This document shows positions 3,989 to 58,330 of a DNA stretch of 64,000 bases, piece after piece. This DNA is from Eledone cirrhosa (lineage: Eukaryota), in contig OZ024741.1 of assembly GCA_964016885.1 (NCBI GenBank), positions 384,648,001 to 384,712,000 of the forward strand. Reading direction: 5' to 3'. The first letter of the stretch is position 1, and every line of letters starts with the position of its first letter. A program made the position numbers and the translations under genes. The notes below the pieces were generated by a model, which saw nothing but the letters and a program-made list of their open reading frames with translations, did not search any database and was not told the DNA's origin.

Positions 3989-5335
3989 TCATCGTCGAGG
4001 AAGAAGTGGAGATGTCGTAGCCTGAGCGCGGGTCTGTGATTCATCAGCCACGGCATGCCCAGCCCTCCATATAGCGGGTGTTGACAGCAGATGGACCGCC
4101 TGACCATCGGAACGCGTCCCTTCCAAGAGCAAACGCTCCAGTGCTGTCAGGCGGGGCTTATGACAATGTACGACGGTCAGGCGGTAGTAGATGACGGACG
4201 CGATGTACGCATTCGCCACTTCCGTTCGACCTTTCAGGGAGAGCTTCCTCTCTGCCCATTTCTGGGTGAGAGAAGCCACCCTGCTCGTCACCTCGTCCCA
4301 GTTTTTGTCCGTCTGGCGGTCCGGACCGAACCAGACCCCTATCAATTTAACCGGTCCGTCCGTCCAGCGCCCGACGACGCTATTGGACGGCATGGACCTG
4401 CCTCTCCAGGTGCCGAACTGCAGGCCTACCGACTTTTGCTGGTTGATCATTGCTCCTGTCACCGCTTCGTATTCTCTTAGTGTGGTGCCGATCGCCTCGA
4501 TGTGTTTGGCGTTCGACACCACTACGGTGACATTGTCCACATATGCTGACACGGATCTTCCGCATCCTAGTTCGCGCGGGACCCCCCTCAACGTCTCCAG
4601 TGTGTGCAGTAATGGCTCGAGAGTCAATGCGTACAAGAGGGACGAGGGGGGACATCCTTGGCGGACCGAGCCCATGATGTTGAACGGTTCAGAAAGGTGA
4701 CCGTTCACTCTCACCACAGAGCAGATGTCACTGTGCATGGCAGCGATCCAGCCTCTGAAGACGGGCCCAAAGCCAGCCGCCCTCAGGACTGACGCCAGAT
4801 AACGATTGTCGACCCTATCGAAAACTTTCGACTGATCTAAATTGATCAAGGATCCACCCGTTCCAGGTTCCCTAGCTACCCTCTCTACGATGTATCGCAT
4901 GAGGTGGAGGTTGTCGTGGATGGATCTGTCTGGAATGGCGCATGTCTGCGCCTCTCCCACCAGACCACCAACGACAAGCGCCAACCTCTTTGCTAGCACC
5001 TTTGCTGTGTTTAGCAGAGTTATGGGCCTGAAATTATCTATGTTATCCTCCTTGTTCGGATCCTTTCTCAGCAGCGCCACCGCTCCTCGGCTCGCAGAGC
5101 TGGGAATTCTCCTGTTATGTTGCCAGTTGCAGTAGACGTCCGCCAAGAGGCCTCCGAACAAGTGTAGCATCTGTACGTAAAGTTCATAGAGCAGACCATC
5201 CAAACCAGGCGATTTATCCCTTATGCAGCCAGTCATTGCCTCCCGTACTTCAGCGGCTGTTATCGGCTTTTCGCAACACTCCGCCTCAGTGGGAGAGAGC
5301 CGCGGCAGACCGTCGAGGTAGGCACTAAAGTCCAC
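3989..5335 (-). pseudogene. LINE ORF2 reverse transcriptase domain
   Basis: Motifs KSPGLDG, FRPITLLN, LDQSKVFDRV and VRQGCP. The catalytic YADD is mutated to YVDN. Confidence 0.9.
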
Positions 5336-5739
5336 CCCTCGATCAGGCGCGCCGCTGCCCCGAACAGCTGAGCGGAGTGTCGCTGAAAAGCTTCACACAT
5401 TTCCCCGGGATCGAGTAGTATGCGCCCGTCATAGTCCACTAAAGACCGGATCGTGGCTTTGTTGCCACGACGCGCCTCAACCACTCGAGCCCATTGAACG
5501 GCTTTCGTCCCCTCGTGTCTGAGAGCACGCACCCTAGCTCTGACAACGCAGCCTTCGTGCTTTGCATTGAAGAATTGGTCAAGGGCCAATTTCGCCACAA
5601 GTACGTCGGTCGCGATGCCTTTAATAAGCGCCTCGTCTAATTTTCTAACTAGTTCTCCCTCTGCTCTATTTTTCTCTATTGATAGAGCCTTACTAAATCT
5701 AATAGACTCTATTCTAATCGCTCTTTTCAGAGCAAACCA

Positions 5740-6540
5740 CTATCTGTTGTTGACGATGGCCCCCGTTAACGCCCGCTTAACTAGTTCGTTAATCCGGTCT
5801 CTGTAGGCCTTGCGCGTTGTTAATGTCACGTTTAGCTTCCAGTAGCCGGGTCCCTGTCTATGAAGCCTATCTAAGTCAACCTCACAGATCACGAATTTGT
5901 GGTCCGTGTAGCTGACTATCTTGAATTGTGTACATCCTATGCTAGACCTATCTATTTCCCTGCAAAATACTCTATCTAGATATGATCTGGATGACCCGAT
6001 GCGGTTTGTCCATCTCCACATTGGCACATTCGAGAAATCCAGGCGGTACCTGTCAGACAGTTGAAACCGTCTGAGCAGGTTTGAGAGGCTTTTACACCCT
6101 CCTCCCCTATCCGCTAATCCCACACAGTCCCAGCGTTCATCTAAGATCCCGTTCCAGTCGCCCACTAACACTAAAGAGCGGGAAGTTCCAAGAAAAGTCT
6201 TCAGACGCCGGAAGAAATCAGGCCGCCCTGCTCCTGTCGGGGCATAGACGGCCACTAGCCTGAAAGCTTGCCCGTCTCCGCTGGTCACGTCCAGCACCAC
6301 AAACTTACCTTCTGGGTCCAGGAAGATGGCCCGTATGGCGAGATCCAAACCTCTCCGAAAAAGCACAGCTACTCCTCCCCCCGATCCAGAACGGCTGGGA
6401 GATGCGTACACATCGTAGCCGCCGAAGATCGGTGCGAAGGCCCGTGCTTCGGAGATTCTGGTCTCGCTGATGGCTACCACATCAATGTTTAGTGACCTGA
6501 GATCGTTGAGCAGATGGCCCTGCTTCCATGACGACCTCAA
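5740..6540 (-). pseudogene. LINE ORF2 APE endonuclease domain
   Basis: Motifs NARGL, ISET, GGVAVL, VYAP, GDWN, YLDRVF and TDH. Confidence 0.9.
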
Positions 6541-8834
6541 ACCACGCGCATTTATGCTGCCTATTCTGAGTGAGGTAATGTTGAAAAAGAGTGGAAAAAG
6601 ATGGGAAAGACCACTTACCTCACTTCTCGTAGAGGAAGGATGGTTTGTCCATCCTTTTCACTGCTTGTGGCCTCCTCCGGAAGGATGTCCTTATAAATCC
6701 TCCTGGAGTGTGTTTGTCAGACGTCTCCGATGTCCTTGGGGAATTTTTCTTTTAGTGTCGTGTACGTTTTCTGTGTGATGCGAGTGATTTGTATGTGTGG
6801 AGGTGGTGTGAATTTTTGAGGTGTTGTGTGGTCTTTTTCTGTGATGCTGGTGTTGTGTTGGATGTAGTGTAATAATTGGTTGTTGTTCAAATTTAATGCT
6901 GTGTAGTGTGTATCATTTTGGTTGTACTGTTTTGTTTGCGTTTGTTGTGGGTTTGTTTCTGTTTCGTTTTTTCGTGATTTTTGTGGTGTTGGTGATGGTG
7001 GTTGTGGGGTTAATGATGGTGATGATGTAGATGTTTGTGGTGATGGGGCTGGTGATGCTGGTGTGGGTGGTGGCATAGCTGTCTTAACTTCTTTGTTTGT
7101 TTGCTTATTTGTTTCCCCCTGCATTTTGATTTTTGGAGGGCGAAAAAAGAGGATTTTTCTTTTTTAGGTTCTTTTTTTCTTTTTCTTTTTCCTGATGCCA
7201 TTTCGCACTCCTCCTCATCGTCACAATCTGTCTCCAGTTGCGATAGGTCGGGGAGTAGAAAATCCTCCACAGGGGTTGGTTTTGGTTGTGCTAATTCTGT
7301 CGCGATGGGTGGTGGTGGTGTTGATTTTGCTACTGTTGCTGCTACAGTTGCTGGGGTTGTTGCGGCTACAGTTGCTTCTGTTGTTGCTACTGTTGCTGGG
7401 GTTGTTGCTGCTACAGTTGCTTCTGTTGTTGCTGCTACAGTTTTTTCTGCCATTTCTGCGCTGGTTTTGATGCTAGAGTCACTAGGGTGGGTAGGAGAGG
7501 TGGCCTCAACTTTTTAGCCTGAGGGCAGAAACCTTTAGGTGGGTTCCTTCGCCACAAACGACACACCTAGGCCTTCTACTCTCAACGATTACGGTGAGGT
7601 GGCTGCCGTCATTGAGGTCTATCACCTCTGGAATTTCCTCAATGTTTTTGGTCCGCTTGGATCAGGAGCTCCATCCCAGATCCGGACCAGTTCTCCTGCT
7701 TTTCCTTTGTTACCTCAATTATTTTCGTGTTGGCCTCGATGCCGGCGAGAACGGCAGCCATTAGCCAGGGAATTTCGATGGCCGGCGGAACGTGAGTCAC
7801 CCTGATCTTCACGAGTCTCTGACCACAATAGCTTGGGACGAGTGTGAACTCGTCACTTCTTAATGGGGCCATGGAGTGCTCTCTGTCTTCCTGTGGGGTT
7901 CCAAAGAACACGTCCACGGTTCCATATTTGTGCCCACGTCTGATGTCCCAAAGCTTTTTGTATCTGGGACTCGGATGCCCTTTCCACTCAGTGTGATTTT
8001 GTGTTTATCGTCTGATATGACACGGTGCATAGGCGCCGATACTCCATTTTATTGGGTGGGTGAGGCTGACCCTGTACCCATCTTTTTTTACCATTCTCTT
8101 GGCTTCATTTAATTCATCCTGGCTTACCTCGATTGTTTCGCTTTTCTTGGCTACTTTGGCAAACGACACATTTTGTTTTGCGCTGGTGTTGATGTTGTTG
8201 TTGTTATTCTCATTGTAGTTGTTGTTGTTGTTGCTGTTATTGTTATTTTTGTTATTGTTATTTTTAGTTTCAGTCGTGGTGGTGGTGGTGGTGGTGGTGG
8301 TGGTGTCAGTGGTGTTCGGCGTGGAAGAGTCGATTCTGGGTGAATCCATTTCGATGTCACGAGATAATAATTTATTTTTTTTGTTTCTGTTGTCGCTGTG
8401 GTGGTGGTGAGGGTAGCGGCTTTAACACCTGCAGTTATTGGTAATGGCGGGAAATGAATGTCTGCATGTGACAAATTTAAATTATTGCCACTGCTTATAT
8501 TTTTAGTGTTGGCAAGCGTAGTAATGTCTACAATGGTGGTGGTGGTGGTGGTGGTGGTGGTGGGAGGTGTTGGTCTGTTATGAAGGCTGTCAGTTTTGTG
8601 TGGCTGAGAGCCGTCAATTTTTTTTTTCCAAAGAAAGTTTTTGTTTGATAATTATAAAAGTTTAAATTTTGGGCTCAAGGCCCCAATCTTTTTGAGTGTC
8701 CTTTTCAGAAAGCAATATATGTAAACTTATAAACACTTAACAACAAAACGTTTCCAGAACTGGCAATTTGAAACAACTGAAAACAACAAACCTTTGCGGA
8801 GCTCACGATAATACGATTTCCTACGTAGGTCGCC

Positions 8835-10255: not shown

Positions 10256-13190
10256 AATGTTTTTTTTATTAACCACAAGGGTTGATACAAGGCATGTGAA
10301 AATGCGTGTGAAAATAAAAACATAAAATAAAAAACAAAGGATGTAACAAAAAAACAAAACAAAGGAAAATTCCCCAATAGTGGGGAGACTTCCGAGGGTC
10401 ACTCGTCGAAAAAGCCCACAAAAATCCACGGTGACCCTGACCACCAGGGTGAGTGCCCTCTCCCAGTTTTCCACGTCCAATCTACAAGCGCATACTCAGA
10501 GCCGGCCTATTCACTCAGGCCATGCTCGCCTCTCTCACCCATCTTTCAACAAATTGTTGGGAAAGGAACACTTCCTTCTCCACTCTTATTTTCCTTTTCA
10601 AATGAAATTTGAAAAAGTTGATCAGGGCTTCACCAAAGAGGTAACTGCTCGTCTTCAGAACTTTCAAACGTGTCCACCATACGACCTCTTTCGCCATGGC
10701 CACCAGACAGATAAAATCTGTCTGCCCTTCCCGGTTAAAGGAAGGCGGCGAAGCAATCTTCATGATGGACTCAGCTGATATCCAGATCCGTCCTACACGT
10801 GACAGCAGGTATTCGACATAAACCCATAAGTCAGCAATGATCAGACACTCGACGAGTGCGTGCAGGACAGTTTCGTCGTCCTGCGTGCATCTCGAACAGG
10901 TCCAGCTGACAGCATATCCATACCTGTAGAGTTTATCCCGAACTGGCAAAGCTCCTCAGTAGCACTGCCAGGCCAGGGATTTCTGGAAATTGTCCATGGG
11001 CCCCGGTCCGAATGTTTTCCAGAAGAGACTGGCTAGTTGATTTTCATCAAAGCCCAGAGTATCCCCAAGGAGTCATCGCTCTTACTCCCCACTAACCCTC
11101 TTTAGAATGCCAAGATGGAGTTTCCACCGATCGTAGTGCCCGATTGATTGAGAACAGTGAGCGTCTGAAGACATTCCAGTCATCAAGCGTTCCCTCTCGA
11201 TCTTCGCTTGACCCAGGACTGCAGCTCCGCCAAGGAGATGAGCTGGGGAAAAATGTGTCTAACAAACGGCGACCACACCTGTTCCCCATCAAGGAAGAGG
11301 TGGAGATGCCGTATCCTCAGTGCATGTTTGCGCATCATTAACCACGGCATTTCCAGCACTCCACGTAGCGAGTGTTGACAGCAGATGGACCACCTGACAA
11401 TCGGCGCGTGTCCTTTCTACAAAAGGCGAAAGAGCAAACGCTCCAGTGCAATGAGGAGAGGCTTAGGACATGGCACGGCGGTCAGGTGGTAGTAGATGAA
11501 GGACGTGATGTACGTATTCGCCACCTCTGCCCGATTTTTCAGGGACAGTTTCCTCTAAGCCAGTTTTTGAGTGAAAGAGGCCACCCTGCTCGTCACCTCG
11601 TTCCAGTTTTTGTCCATTTGGAGGTCCAGACCAAATCAAACCCTGAGCATTTTAACCGGCCCATCCGTCGAGCGCCCAAGGAATCTGGTTAATAGTATGG
11701 ACCTGCCTCTCCAGGTGCCCAGCTGCAGGCCTACCGACTTTTCCTGGTTAATCTTTGCCCCCGTCATCATCTCGCACTTCTTGAGAGCAGTGCCGACTAT
11801 CTCAATATGTTTGGTGCTCAACACCATTACGGTGACGTCGTCCGCATAAGCTGACATGTTTCTTATGGGGTGTTGTGTAGTATTTCTGTGATGCTGGTGT
11901 TGTGCTGGATGTAGTGCAATAATTGTTTGTTGTTCGTGTTTAGAGCCGTGTAGTGCGTTGCAGTTTTGTATTTCTGTTGTGTTTGTGGTGGTGTTGATGT
12001 CTTAACTTTTTTGTTTAATTCTTTCTTTCTTTTCTTTCTGTTTTTGATGGTTTTCCACCCCTCCTCCTCGTCACAATCCGTCTCCAGTTGTGCGAAGTCG
12101 GTGAGGGGCCTGTTCTCCACAGATGCTCATGCTGCTTGTTGCATGTTGGATGGTGGTGGCGCTAGTGTTGCTTCTGATATGGTGTATGGTAGTGGTGCTC
12201 TTGATACCGTTGCTGCTGCCATTGCTGCTGTTGTTGGTAGTGATGGTGGAGCTAGTATGGGAAGTGGTGAAGGCAGCAGATGTGGCCTTCATTTTTTGGC
12301 CAATTCTTGGGGGAAGAAGGCCTTTAGGTGGATGTTATCCCCACACACGTGACACCTTGGCCTTCTACCCTCGACTGTTACGGTAATGCAGCTGCCACCA
12401 TCAAGGTCTATTACTTCTAGAATTTCTTGGATGTTATTCTAGTCCGTTTGGATCAGGAGCTCCATTCCTGATCCGGACCGGTTTTCCTGTTTTATTTTAA
12501 TTATTTACAGGATTTTGGTGTCGTCTTCGATGTCGGCGAGGCCGTCATCCGGGGAATTGCCATTGCCGGCGAAACTAATGTCACTTTCACTCTTACGAGC
12601 CTTTGTCCGCAGTAGCTTGGGACCAGAGTGACCATCGTTCTTTAGTGGCGTCATGGAATGTTCTCTGACTTCATGTGGGGCCACAAAGAACACGTCCGGG
12701 GTCCTATATCTTCTTCCATGCGTGATGTTGTTTTTTTGAGTCAACACATGTCCCAAAGCCTTGTATCTGGGACTTCGGCGTGTTTTTGCACTAACTGTAT
12801 GGTATGACACCGTACATAGCGTTCGTTGTTCCATGACATCGGATGGAAGAGTAAGGCTGACCTTGTATCCATTGTTTTAAAAATTCGCCTGGCTCCATTC
12901 ATTTCGTGTTCCGTCCGACTGTTTCCTTTTTATTTGCGACTCTCGCAAATGTGACAGATTTTGCGCTGTCGTTGTTGTTGTTGTTGGTACCGATGCTGTA
13001 GCTGCTGCCTCTACCATTGCAGCTGTTGTTCCTGTTATTGTTGGCGGCGTTGCCATTTGCTTCTATGTCGCTGCTGCTACTGCTGCTGTCTTTAACTGTC
13101 TCTGTTATACATGTTTTTGGTGCTGCTGCTGTTGTTGTTGTTGTTTTTTGTGGTGTTGGTGGTAGTGGCGGTGGTGGTGGTGGTGATAAC
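10256..13190 (-). mobile_element. Second Tx1/L1-like LINE copy with a large internal deletion
   Basis: Homologous to 2915-8620. The ORF1 C-terminus (HYTALN..LLHYIQHNTSITE) joins directly to RT at SAYADD (~11858), so APE and the N-terminal half of RT are missing. Confidence 0.85.
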
Positions 13191-18639: not shown

Positions 18640-19940
18640 TTGTTATGCTATTTCGTTTAGCTCAGTTCTGTTTCTCTATTGCCGGGTTCAGGCCTTGAAC
18701 CTAGGGCAAAAGATGTCTTTGTTGTAGAGAGAGAACTTATCTGAGAACGTGTGCTGTTCCTAGTAGTCCGATCTTCTGTAGCTCATATTTGCTGTTCTTA
18801 CAGGGAATGACGCTAAGGTGCAGGTCTGAGGATTTGGGTATTAACCCTAATGCTCCTATTACCACAGGGATAGTATTTATGATCATCCTCCACATGCGGT
18901 TGATCTCTATTTCCAGGTCTTTGTATTTTGACAGTTTTTCCATTGTTTTTATAGATTTATTCTTGTCAGCTGGTACGGAAATATCTATAAGACTACATGT
19001 CTGATCTGTTTTGTTTTTTATGATGGTATCTGGTCTGTAGGCAGTGATTTCTCGGTCGGTTATCACAGGCATATCCCACAAGATGGAGATGTTGCCCTTT
19101 TCCATTACTGTTTTTGGTTGATGTTCATACCATTTATTAGAAGTTTGGATTTCATGAGAGCGGCAGAGCATCCAGTGCACAATGCGGTTGTGTCTTTCGA
19201 TATAGTCAGTTTTTGCCAGCTCTGGATACCCGGAGATAACATGATCTACTGTTTCTTCATATTTGTAGAATATATTCTGCATAGAGGGCTAGTCCCATCT
19301 TTCACTATTCTGTGTCTATAGGCCCGAGTGTTTAGAGATTGGTCTTGTGCAGCAACTAAGAGTCCTCCAGTCTCTCCTTTCAAACCAGCACTTCTGAACC
19401 AGGATTGCGAGCCATGCTGATCGATATCATTGTCAGAATGTCGTTTTGGGAATCTACCATGTAGTGGTTTTGCCTTCCATTCACGGCTTAGTTCTTCTGT
19501 TTGGAGTTTCTTTACTTTTATCTTCGCAGTCATAGTTAGCTATGCAGCACTCTGTTGTTAATTTTCTATGGCTATGTCTTGTTCCATGTTCAGTTTTTGC
19601 CTAAATGTTCTTGCCTCTTTTGTTAGTGAGTGTAGTTTCATAATTCGTTCATGCTTGAGTACAGGCTTAAGGAGTTAATCTCGGGTGTGGTGGAGGTAGC
19701 TATCCAATCCAATGGTTGCTGTTTTGTATGTAGCTTCCAGTTGTCGGAGCCCCCTTCCATCTTCTCTTTATGCAGCTTCCAGTGGTCGGAGCCCCTTTCA
19801 CCTTCTCTCCTTGAGATATACAGCCTATGTACATCGGCCTTAGAGTGATGCATTTTTCCGTTGTCAATAGTTTCCTTGTCTTAGTGTCCAACCTTTGTAG
19901 TTCTTGCAGGATCAAGTAAGAAGGCCTGCACTCCAATAAA
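18640..19940 (-). mobile_element. R4/Dong-type LINE 3' fragment
   Basis: KPLHGRF, GETGGLLVAAQDQSL, ETVDHVISG, RHN and LWDMPVITDREITAYRPD..KYKDL. Confidence 0.85.
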
Positions 19941-20560: not shown

Positions 20561-20818
20561 CAATTGTTGTTAATGTTATTGTTGTTGTCACCATCATCAC
20601 CAACATTATCATTATTCTTATTATGATAGTAATTATCCTTATATATATTTTTTTTTTCAATAAGACATTCCTCATGAAGAGACAATAGGAAAAGTATGAC
20701 GACTTAATAAATGAAGTCGGCCATCAATTGCCTTGTCGCCTGCTGATATCTAAAGAGCTGTATAGAAAAAAGAAAAAGTGAGAAAGGATAAAAAGAAAAA
20801 AAGGAAAAATTGAAGGAA

Positions 20819-21008
20819 ATAATTGTTTCTACTTTTGGCACAAGGCCAGCAATTACCCAGTACATTACTGGTACTTTATTTTATCGACCCCGTAAGGATG
20901 AAAGGCAAAGTTAACCTCGGCGGGATTTGAACTCAGAATGGCAAGGGCCGTAACTCTATGCGTCAAAGCATGGCGTCCAACCCTCTACCGATACTGCCAA
21001 TTCACCGA
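20819..21008 (-). mobile_element. tRNA-derived SINE
   Basis: Same family core as 2697-2890. Confidence 0.85.
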
Positions 21009-25609: not shown

Positions 25610-25655
25610 GGCTAAATAGACTGTAGTATATATATTTTATTATTATTATTATTAA

Positions 25656-25842
25656 GGGCGGTGAATTGGCAGTATCGGTAGAGGGCTGGACGCCATGCTT
25701 TGATGCATAGAGTTACGGCTCTTGCCATTCTGAGTTCAAATCCCGCCTAGGTTAACTTTGCCTTTCATCCTTACGGGGTCGATAAAATAAAGTACCAGTA
25801 ATGCACTGGGATAATTGCTGGCCATAGCCAAAAGTAGAAACA

Positions 25843-25850
<8 letters not shown>
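25656..25850 (+). mobile_element. Full-length tRNA-derived SINE with a (TTA)n tail
   Basis: GGCGGTGAATTGGCAG head, GAGTTCAAATCCC B-box and the family core. Confidence 0.85.
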
Positions 25851-25875
<25 letters not shown>

Positions 25876-25885
25876 AAAAAAAAAA

Positions 25886-45025: not shown

Positions 45026-45196
45026 ACGTAAACATTATTTTTCTATGCATCACTTCAATAGTTTCACATCAATTAAAAAAATCTGTCTAATTAATTCCAT
45101 ATTTTAGACATTTTATCGACGACTCGAATCATCATTTTTTATTTATTACATTTTATATCTCAGGTGTAAAATAACAACCAGCAACTTGAATATAGC

Positions 45197-45979
45197 ATGG
45201 CTGATTCATACGCGTTTGTGAAAGGTGGACGGCTAAAAGTGAAGGGACACAAGGATAAGAAACACAAAAAACATAAGAAAAGAAAACATGATGAGATTTC
45301 AGGTACCCAACAAAGTAAATCTCTTGATACCGATCGCTCTGGCTGGTGGAGTACATCATCAATTGAAGATTTATCCGGACCTATTGCTATCGAAATGAAG
45401 CCATCACGCTATATTAATACTTTAGACAACGGATTGTTTGAATTGGGACCCGAGCATCCTGAACACGACCCTCCCGACCCCACAGAAATTATTACAGCTA
45501 TAAAAGTGAATGAAACGAAAATCGCACTTAAATCTGGTTATGGGAAATATCTGAGTGTGGAAAAGTCTGGTGAAGTGGTGGGTCGGTCAGATGCCATAGG
45601 TGAACGAGAACAATGGGAACCAGTTTTCCAAGACGCGAAAACTGCGCTCTGTGGACCTAATGGATGTTTTCTTTCTTCCGATGAGGATGGAATTATAAGT
45701 TGTATAAAATCAAAAGCTGGTTCGAACGAAATGGTCTGCATAAAATCTTGTACCGATACAACCCCAGATCCCAAAGCTGATATTCCCATTGAAGAACGAG
45801 CTTCCGTTCGACAAGCCGAAATCAACTATGTGAAAAAGTTCCAAAGTTTTCAAGACCGAAGATTACGAGTGAGTAAAGATGATGTTAAAGTTCTAAAGAA
45901 GGCTAAAAAGGAAGGTTCCCTTCACGGAAATTTATTGGATCGACGCGAAAAAATGAAATCGGATCGATATTGTAAATAG
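45197..45979 (+). CDS. FRG1: Protein FRG1 homolog (fascin-like domain), 260 aa, uninterrupted CDS
   Basis: N-terminus MADSYAFVKGGRLKVKG with a K-rich NLS, then IALKSGYGKYL, GRSDAIGEREQWEPVFQ, EINYVKKFQSFQD and C-terminal LLDRREKMKSDRYCK. ATTAAA lies at 46014. Confidence 0.97.
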   Translation: MADSYAFVKGGRLKVKGHKDKKHKKHKKRKHDEISGTQQSKSLDTDRSGWWSTSSIEDLSGPIAIEMKPSRYINTLDNGLFELGPEHPEHDPPDPTEIITAIKVNETKIALKSGYGKYLSVEKSGEVVGRSDAIGEREQWEPVFQDAKTALCGPNGCFLSSDEDGIISCIKSKAGSNEMVCIKSCTDTTPDPKADIPIEERASVRQAEINYVKKFQSFQDRRLRVSKDDVKVLKKAKKEGSLHGNLLDRREKMKSDRYCK

Positions 45980-52361: not shown

Positions 52362-52572
52362 ATATTATATTTAGAGTTTAAACTCAAAGTCATTTACAAT
52401 TAATCAGCTCAAAGAAAGAAGCATTTCCGAGCAGTGAAATACAAGTTATATATTAATATATATGATAAACACATACGTGTTTGTATTGTTAATTAGTTTA
52501 TTTCGTTCTAGCTAACTTTGTCTCTTACAATACAAACACGTATATGTTTATCATATATATTAATATATAACT

Positions 52573-52645
<73 letters not shown>

Positions 52646-52677
52646 TATGTATACACACACACACACACACATATACA

Positions 52678-52917
52678 TTTTCGCTCTACATCGCTGAATA
52701 CAATAAATGTAATCTGAGTTTTTCGAATATTAATAATAACATTCGATTCGTTTGCAATTATGCATATACGTATATTGCAATTATGCAGTTCTATTCGCAT
52801 GCCAACACAAGAGAAAGAATGAACAGTTCATTCTACTGACATGGCTATAAAATTGAGGCTTGTTTGCATAATTGCAGACGAATCGAATGTTATTAATATT
52901 CGAAAAACTCAGATTAC

Positions 52918-52922
<5 letters not shown>
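52678..52922 (+). mobile_element. Short foldback relative of the element at 25886-26460
   Basis: 52704-52764 is inverted at 52865-52922, and 52784-52922 matches 26319-26460. Confidence 0.8.
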
Positions 52923-52992
<70 letters not shown>

Positions 52993-58289: not shown

Positions 58290-58330
58290 GCCCTGATGAG
58301 TCCTTATTAATGGGACGAAACATTGTAGGC
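58290..58330 (+). ncRNA. Minimal type I hammerhead motif
   Basis: GCC-CTGATGA-GTCCT-TATTAAT-GGGAC-GAAA-CATTG-TA-GGC, followed by AATAAA. Confidence 0.8.

Follow-up and report, generated by a model that had tools for sequence, protein, structure and literature searches.

Insertion ends of a hammerhead-bearing, Penelope-type repeat in Eledone cirrhosa are enriched from the predicted ribozyme cut onward

The repeat discussed here is best compared with three described systems: the metazoan non-LTR retrozymes (Cervera and de la Pena 2020, PMC7229834; Li, Clavereau and Pollet 2026, 10.64898/2026.07.22.740005), the Penelope-like elements (PLEs) and R2. With regard to the retrozymes, the accessible parts of the two papers deal with cleavage in vitro and with linear and circular RNAs, and in those parts genomic 5′ junctions are not mapped to the cut. 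As far as the available text describes them (PMC7229834), the repeat has in common with these elements a non-coding unit, a type I hammerhead and head-to-tail repeats; it is also retrozyme-like in its thousands of copies and in sharing its genome with Penelope elements. It differs from them in two respects: its copies are mostly truncated two-armed insertions rather than arrays (PMC7229834; 10.64898/2026.07.22.740005), and the variable seam between its units lies at a T-tract, not at the ribozyme.

The hallmarks of PLEs, in the available portions of Craig et al. 2021 (PMC8557442), match the ends, arms and targets of the repeat: an inverted, 5′-truncated copy at the 5′ end, a tail of 30-40 bp at one end, and AT-rich or (TA)n targets. 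The likeness extends to two start sites of reverse transcription (RT) downstream of the hammerhead and to two-strand nicking, as given in the accessible text of Frangieh et al. 2024 (PMC11167929). Unlike PLEs, the 438-nt repeat is without an ORF. What, then, does the hammerhead do? Its in vivo role in PLEs is described as unshown or unclear in the available parts of Cervera and de la Pena 2014 (PMC4209133) and of PMC8557442, and for the anole Penelope element the accessible text reports that cleavage is dispensable for insertion in vitro, that uncut RNA is the dominant substrate and that no RNA reads end at the cut (PMC11167929).

R2, with its HDV-like ribozyme, offers a precedent: according to the available text of Eickbush et al. 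2013 (PMC3774820), cleavage sets the RNA's 5′ end and is legible in the genomic 5′ junctions. The repeat resembles R2 in having variable 5′ junctions joined by microhomology. However, the R2 cut defines the full-length 5′ end (PMC3774820), whereas the predicted cut of the repeat is internal, would concern a minority of the templates and would yield truncated copies that lack the ribozyme. In a literature search made mostly among papers accessible without subscription, and within the parts of them available, none maps the genomic 5′ junctions of a retrozyme or PLE to the hammerhead cut.

A non-coding unit with Penelope-type ends

The window, meaning the whole 64,000-nt stretch of Eledone cirrhosa DNA analysed here, holds two copies of the repeat, and in the 3.0 Gb genome an exact 36-nt motif of it (m357-392) occurs 1406 times. 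Fetched loci give a unit of 438 nt that runs head to tail through a T-tract; in the numbering used here m1 is window position 26060, and the predicted cut falls at m260|m261. The unit is short and non-coding, carries a type I hammerhead and is repeated head to tail, as expected of a retrozyme, and no ORF of at least 120 aa is present at either window copy.

As for the build of the insertions, arms reach 867 nt and some span the ribozyme twice. Head-to-head joined segments account for 121 of 182 in the unselected sample described below and for 409 of 619 at loci partly selected on their junctions, and an inverted, 5′-truncated arm lies beside the 5′ end, as in Penelope-type copies. The outer ends combine a long ("tailed") and a short 3′ terminus in 87 insertions, two short termini in 2 and two long ones in 1, with at least one end unclassified in 119 further pairs; by this pairing the 30-40 bp tail is found at one end only. 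Microsatellite or AT-rich targets are the rule, since 337 of 373 3′ ends enter (TA)n or (CA)n-like DNA. Judged from its sequence, the 438-nt repeat appears to work like a Penelope-mobilised non-LTR retrozyme, and it is a newly found member of an already known class.

GIY-YIG domains are abundant (10597 candidates). Of these, 150 were scored and 30 loci were compared with the repeat for similarity to the pLTR of an autonomous PLE; no autonomous partner was found among the 30, none of which has sequence in common with the repeat apart from one nested copy of it. Do the two arms of an insertion derive from the same RNA? Diagnostic alleles agree between the arms at 468 of 543 sites and between tandem passes at 198 of 242, whereas random pairs agree at 60%, and rare variants are shared in 11.6% versus 2%. 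Such sharing fits one RNA source, and also same-time activity or later conversion.

Two other ideas were set aside. A-to-G rates do not differ between strands to any extent (12.7 vs 12.6 per 1000), so there is no RNA-editing scar, and a Pol III origin is not supported: an A-box-like motif occurs at m10, but with no B box, with internal T runs and with no tRNA.

A further, abundant repeat of ∼185 nt is often nested within m369-386 of the element, and 36 of 39 loci of this kind show a target duplication; the ∼185-nt repeat is seen in the window at 25637-25858, 2578-2908, 20818-21007, 40337-40497 and elsewhere. A family related to the 438-nt unit exists in another organism, since 1661 contigs of a run from that organism match the unit, mostly at 82-95% identity.

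Two insertions and a hammerhead-like motif

At 52679-52923, this non-coding, hammerhead-bearing repeat with Penelope-type ends is inserted as two arms. Its inverted arm (52679-52764, minus strand) runs from m427 to m342, is 99% identical to the family reference and has the long 3′ terminus as its outer end. The sense arm (52784-52923, plus strand) covers m261-m403, so that it opens with the base at which the predicted 3′ product would start, and terminates at the short 3′ terminus. The targets, read from the sequence, are microsatellites: (TA)n/(CA)n on the left (52574-52678) and (TA)n on the right (52924-52989). A 51-nt inverted repeat lies immediately left of the insertion, at 52439-52577, and is outside the 438-nt family.

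Between the two arms stands a junction insert of 19 nt (52765-52783). It consists of a 10-nt palindrome, read directly from the sequence at 52765-52774, followed by a re-copy of the end of the inverted arm, whose last 13 nt (52752-52764) are duplicated at 52775-52787. We infer that this insert, of a kind typical of template switching, arose during end joining. The initial annotation had placed the start of family similarity at 52784, with no hammerhead sequence upstream and with a TGCA microhomology blurring the joint by up to 4 nt. Both statements agree with the alignment: 52784 pairs with 26319 of the relative copy, no hammerhead sequence precedes it, and TGCA (52784-52787), assignable to either arm, also closes the 13-nt duplication, so that the junction is fixed only to the equivalents of 26319-26323, an interval of 4 nt.

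The second copy is more complete. Its sense arm (26053-26466, plus strand) begins at m432, inside the T-tract, and covers nearly a whole unit up to the short terminus at m408. Its inverted arm (25873-26048, minus strand) runs from the long 3′ terminus to m265 and stops at the equivalent of 26323, 4 nt downstream of the cut, as had been noted at the outset. At ∼260 kb distance, locus L001 (G000:C2:384936395-384939615) carries the 25873-26466 insertion together with its flank in inverted orientation and at 100% identity, as either a recent duplication or an assembly duplicate.

The sense arm of this copy contains a type I hammerhead-like motif with an extended stem I (26270-26331, plus strand), whose predicted cut after GTC, first placed from the letters alone, agrees with the fit of core motifs and stems. 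The core pieces CUGANGA, GAAA and NUH occur in order, as CUGAUGA (26285-26291), GAAAC (26305-26309) and GUC (26316-26318), with stem II at 26292-26304 and the predicted cut at 26318|26319; per-base identity among copies is 93-99%. In the predicted fold stem I, which is open, comprises 6 bp, an internal loop and 6 bp; stem II has 3-4 bp and stem III 3 bp. The predicted hammerhead fold (-13.0 kcal/mol) is less stable than a rod fold (-20.7 kcal/mol).

The pair G10.1-C11.1 of type I hammerheads is highly conserved, though not absolute. It is absent here: in the family, two A residues face each other at the base of stem II (97% and 95%), and the window copy has A-U, with G-C one step further out. 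A comparable case is HHR_Amex2 of the axolotl, which, in the accessible text, has U-U at the base of helix II and still cleaves (22% in one hour; PMC7229834). Rfam returns no hammerhead match at E≤1 over the whole window or at E≤10 over 26200-26400, and for this reason the hammerhead label depends on the core motif and the stem fit. More hammerhead-like cores, belonging to other repeat families, are seen at 58293 (plus), 53410 (minus) and 31262 (minus).

Insertion ends around the predicted cut

The junction at 52784 has a 4-nt ambiguity and a templated insert, and the two window junctions alone prove nothing. The family has more to say. A sample of 90 loci, most of the first 100 listed matches of the m357-392 motif (1406 in total), is unselected for 5′ ends because the loci were chosen on that motif. 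Duplicates and segments below 30 nt were removed from it, and neither the 23 same-strand rearrangements nor the 10 places where another repeat interrupts the unit were scored as ends. Two other sets, the 30 best BLAST loci and 30 loci picked for an end at m261, had been selected on the 5′ end and were consequently excluded from all rate estimates; the pattern behind the latter has 74 matches genome-wide, of which about 24 of the 30 examined are true junctions.

In the 90 loci, m260-282 holds 34 5′ ends in 2236 nt at risk, or 15.2 per 1000. Upstream, m201-259 has 17 ends in 4212 nt (4.0 per 1000; p=3e-6 against m260-282), and m283-360, further downstream, has 41 in 10462 nt (3.9 per 1000; p=3e-8); the rate over m20-200 is 3.4 per 1000. 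This family-level excess is far above chance. By arithmetic from the rates, it corresponds to about one in four of the arms reaching the site, and about 70% of arms read through the predicted cut. Within an insertion, the two arms tend to share one fate at the site: among unselected pairs 7 both stop, 6 are mixed and 13 both pass (p=0.009). The concordance falls short of significance in the sets selected on junctions (p=0.09), and it may reflect a general correlation in length.

How sharply is the edge placed? Three allele-specific patterns for junctions at m238-270 have 127, 121 and 255 matches genome-wide, and the first 100 of each were used (300 of 503). Ends were called by eye, and the removal of 10 rows (6 read-through indels, 4 duplicates) left 290 junctions; script and eye agree in 88 of 90 calls. 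Among the matches listed, 199 ends fall in m260-270 and 91 in m238-259, that is 18.1 vs 4.1 per nt, and script calls alone give 61 vs 25 in 90 rows (p=1e-12). The best change point in these matches is m260, with m259 and m261 each 7.6 log units worse, and it coincides with the predicted cut within 1 nt. Of the matches listed, 15 end at m260, and in most of these, by eye, the extra G can also be read as a base of the partner arm; since it may belong there, the edge fits m261 as well. A partly overlapping set from contig 1, in which 99 of 100 rows were called and 19 lay outside the range scored, has 14, 24 and 42 ends in m246-259, m260-266 and m267-282, which pools to 66 ends over the 23 nt from m260 and 14 over the 14 nt before it (p=7e-5).

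The initial annotation had proposed a histogram of 5′ junctions relative to the GUC and expected a peak at the cleavage site, with an even spread as the outcome that would speak against it. An even spread did not appear: the density steps up ∼4-fold at the predicted cut. What follows the step is a plateau of ∼20 nt rather than a peak, and no significant spike is found at the cut base among the matches listed (p=0.20 or 0.94). Within the same matches m261 has 28 ends, m262 has 2 and m269 has 37; 45 lie at m260-262 and 154 at m263-270. The step is also weaker in the older copies with the TA/TG alleles (57 vs 40 ends, against 142 vs 51; p=0.015, matches listed), in which the consensus of the ribozyme core is the same. 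Contigs and RAD reads aligned to the unit yielded no histogram of junctions that could be used. RAD read starts at 26333/26336 were considered as a junction signal and rejected: they lie on a GCATGC restriction-type site, which makes them a library effect.

The excess of insertion ends, ∼4 times commoner in the ∼20 nt from the predicted cut, is likely there because part of the RNA was self-cleaved before Penelope-type copying. In the mechanism that we propose, a Penelope protein, probably a dimer, would nick both strands of a (TA)n site, and cDNA would start at two 3′ sites, m403-408 (short) and m434-438 (long), mostly on RNA of one source. On cut RNA, the cDNA could reach no further than m261; it would stop there or slightly short, or be trimmed by 0-20 nt during joining. 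The two cDNA ends would then be joined at microhomologies, sometimes with templated inserts such as that at 52765-52783. Cleavage would be partial, with about a quarter of the ribozyme-reaching cDNAs stopping and most reading through, perhaps owing to competition between the hammerhead and an inactive rod. For the copy at 52784, the family statistics make a cut template likely, as the initial annotation had proposed, but not certain.

Several points stand against cleavage. There is no spike at m261, and the plateau, m261-282, coincides precisely with the extended stem I on its 3′ strand. To these are added the A-A at the base of stem II, the greater stability of the rod, the lack of an Rfam match, the weaker step in TA/TG-allele copies and the autonomous partner that was not found, and also, from the accessible text on the anole element, insertion without cleavage (PMC11167929).

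Could the RNA have been uncut instead? RT might pause or dissociate as it opens up stem I of a folded hammerhead along that stem's 3′ strand, or at a bound protein, and the block would end where stem I meets the core. A folded, uncut ribozyme would leave a similar pattern, since the plateau is the 3′ strand of stem I; the missing spike suits it too, and so does the weaker step in TA-allele copies, which accompanies a G-U replacing a G-C pair in that stem. We nevertheless regard such a roadblock as rather unlikely. A longer and more continuous hairpin, m29-165, has only 11 ends in the 3454 nt at risk of its 3′ strand, m103-165 (3.2 per 1000), which is no excess. At stem I the density stays high up to the last bases (3.4 per nt in m260-266 vs 2.6 in m267-282), at which little duplex would remain to be unwound, and then drops abruptly. 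In addition, the predicted rod pairs m251-260 too (0.70) and would extend the block to m251, yet m251-260 is at baseline.

It is improbable, to a clearly greater degree, that another kind of RNA 5′ end, such as a transcription start, a splice acceptor or a nuclease site, happens to fall near this position. A plateau could result if starts formed a broad cluster, and we take m262-267 to be initiator-like and m261-265 to be AG-acceptor-like, which counts in its favor. However, the 45 ends at m260-262 fall upstream of both sites, against a baseline of ∼12, and among the matches listed neither m264 nor m266 stands out as a peak and no upstream exon recurs; that the edge should come to lie within 1 nt of the cut by accident is unlikely. 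Least probable of all, and largely refuted, is a joining artifact in which palindromes (CTGCAG, GCATGC) and TGCA microhomologies favor arm-to-arm joints near the cut: most arm-to-arm joints among the matches listed do have 2-4 nt overlaps, the m261/m342 TGCA joint of the 52679-52923 copy recurs at loci L288 and L320, and palindromic or A/T positions, m269 for one, carry local peaks, but m260-270 exceeds m238-259 in its supply of microhomology by a factor of only 1.1-1.6, ends joined to flanks show the step as well (12 vs 3, matches listed), and other TGCA sites are flat (m342 0, m343 1 and m350 1 end, for 18 junctions in 30 loci).

A junction step at the cut is the sort of in vivo evidence that has been used for R2 ribozymes, and it suggests that integration does draw on cut RNA as a template. 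The cleavage of retrozyme RNA in cells is already known; what is new is the link to integrated copies. For any hammerhead-bearing family, the step is a cheap readout of whether, and where, the ribozyme cut in the germline.

Template, unit seam and other features of the window

Another question is whether the template is linear or circular. Immediately ahead of the T-tract, 10 nt (m424-m433; around window 25876-25890, minus strand) are hypervariable: they match the consensus in 36 of 122 long 3′ ends and in 14 of 42 unit seams, compared with 131 of 182 for an adjacent control. Non-consensus variants of these bases are fully shared within one insertion in 0 of 18 cases. This suggests that the seam is re-made at each event, or that homopolymers slip. 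The stretch spanning the cut, with 100 of 193 exact, shows no unusual variability. A second cluster of 5′ ends is found at the T-tract, m428-m10 (window ∼26053-26069), where 10 arms stop and 27 pass, and it is possibly the RNA's 5′ end.

The seam and the T-tract cluster together hint at a linear RNA on which RT re-initiates, and homopolymer slippage could explain the seam too. On this basis we put forward, as a tentative and somewhat doubtful idea, that a linear RNA of unit length is copied rather than a ribozyme-ligated circle, that RT re-starts at the long 3′ site and that the hammerhead serves as an internal self-truncation switch. RT would build tandem repeats by re-starting after running off the RNA's 5′ end; as it would re-start each time, the unit seam would carry the same fresh errors as the insertion ends. 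Truncation by the hammerhead would stop about a quarter of the cDNAs. If this is true, the genome logs, copy by copy, the efficiency of cleavage in vivo together with two-site, two-strand priming.

The window has other features of its own. A weak, sub-cut-off match to Pfam L_protein_N (E=1e-4) at 18737-19288 (minus) may be due to chance. A LINE with AP endonuclease and RT domains occupies 3989-6657 (minus), with a second copy at 10385-11864, and 45170-45979 (plus) contains an FRG1-like reading frame that runs without interruption for 269 aa and may be a retrocopy.
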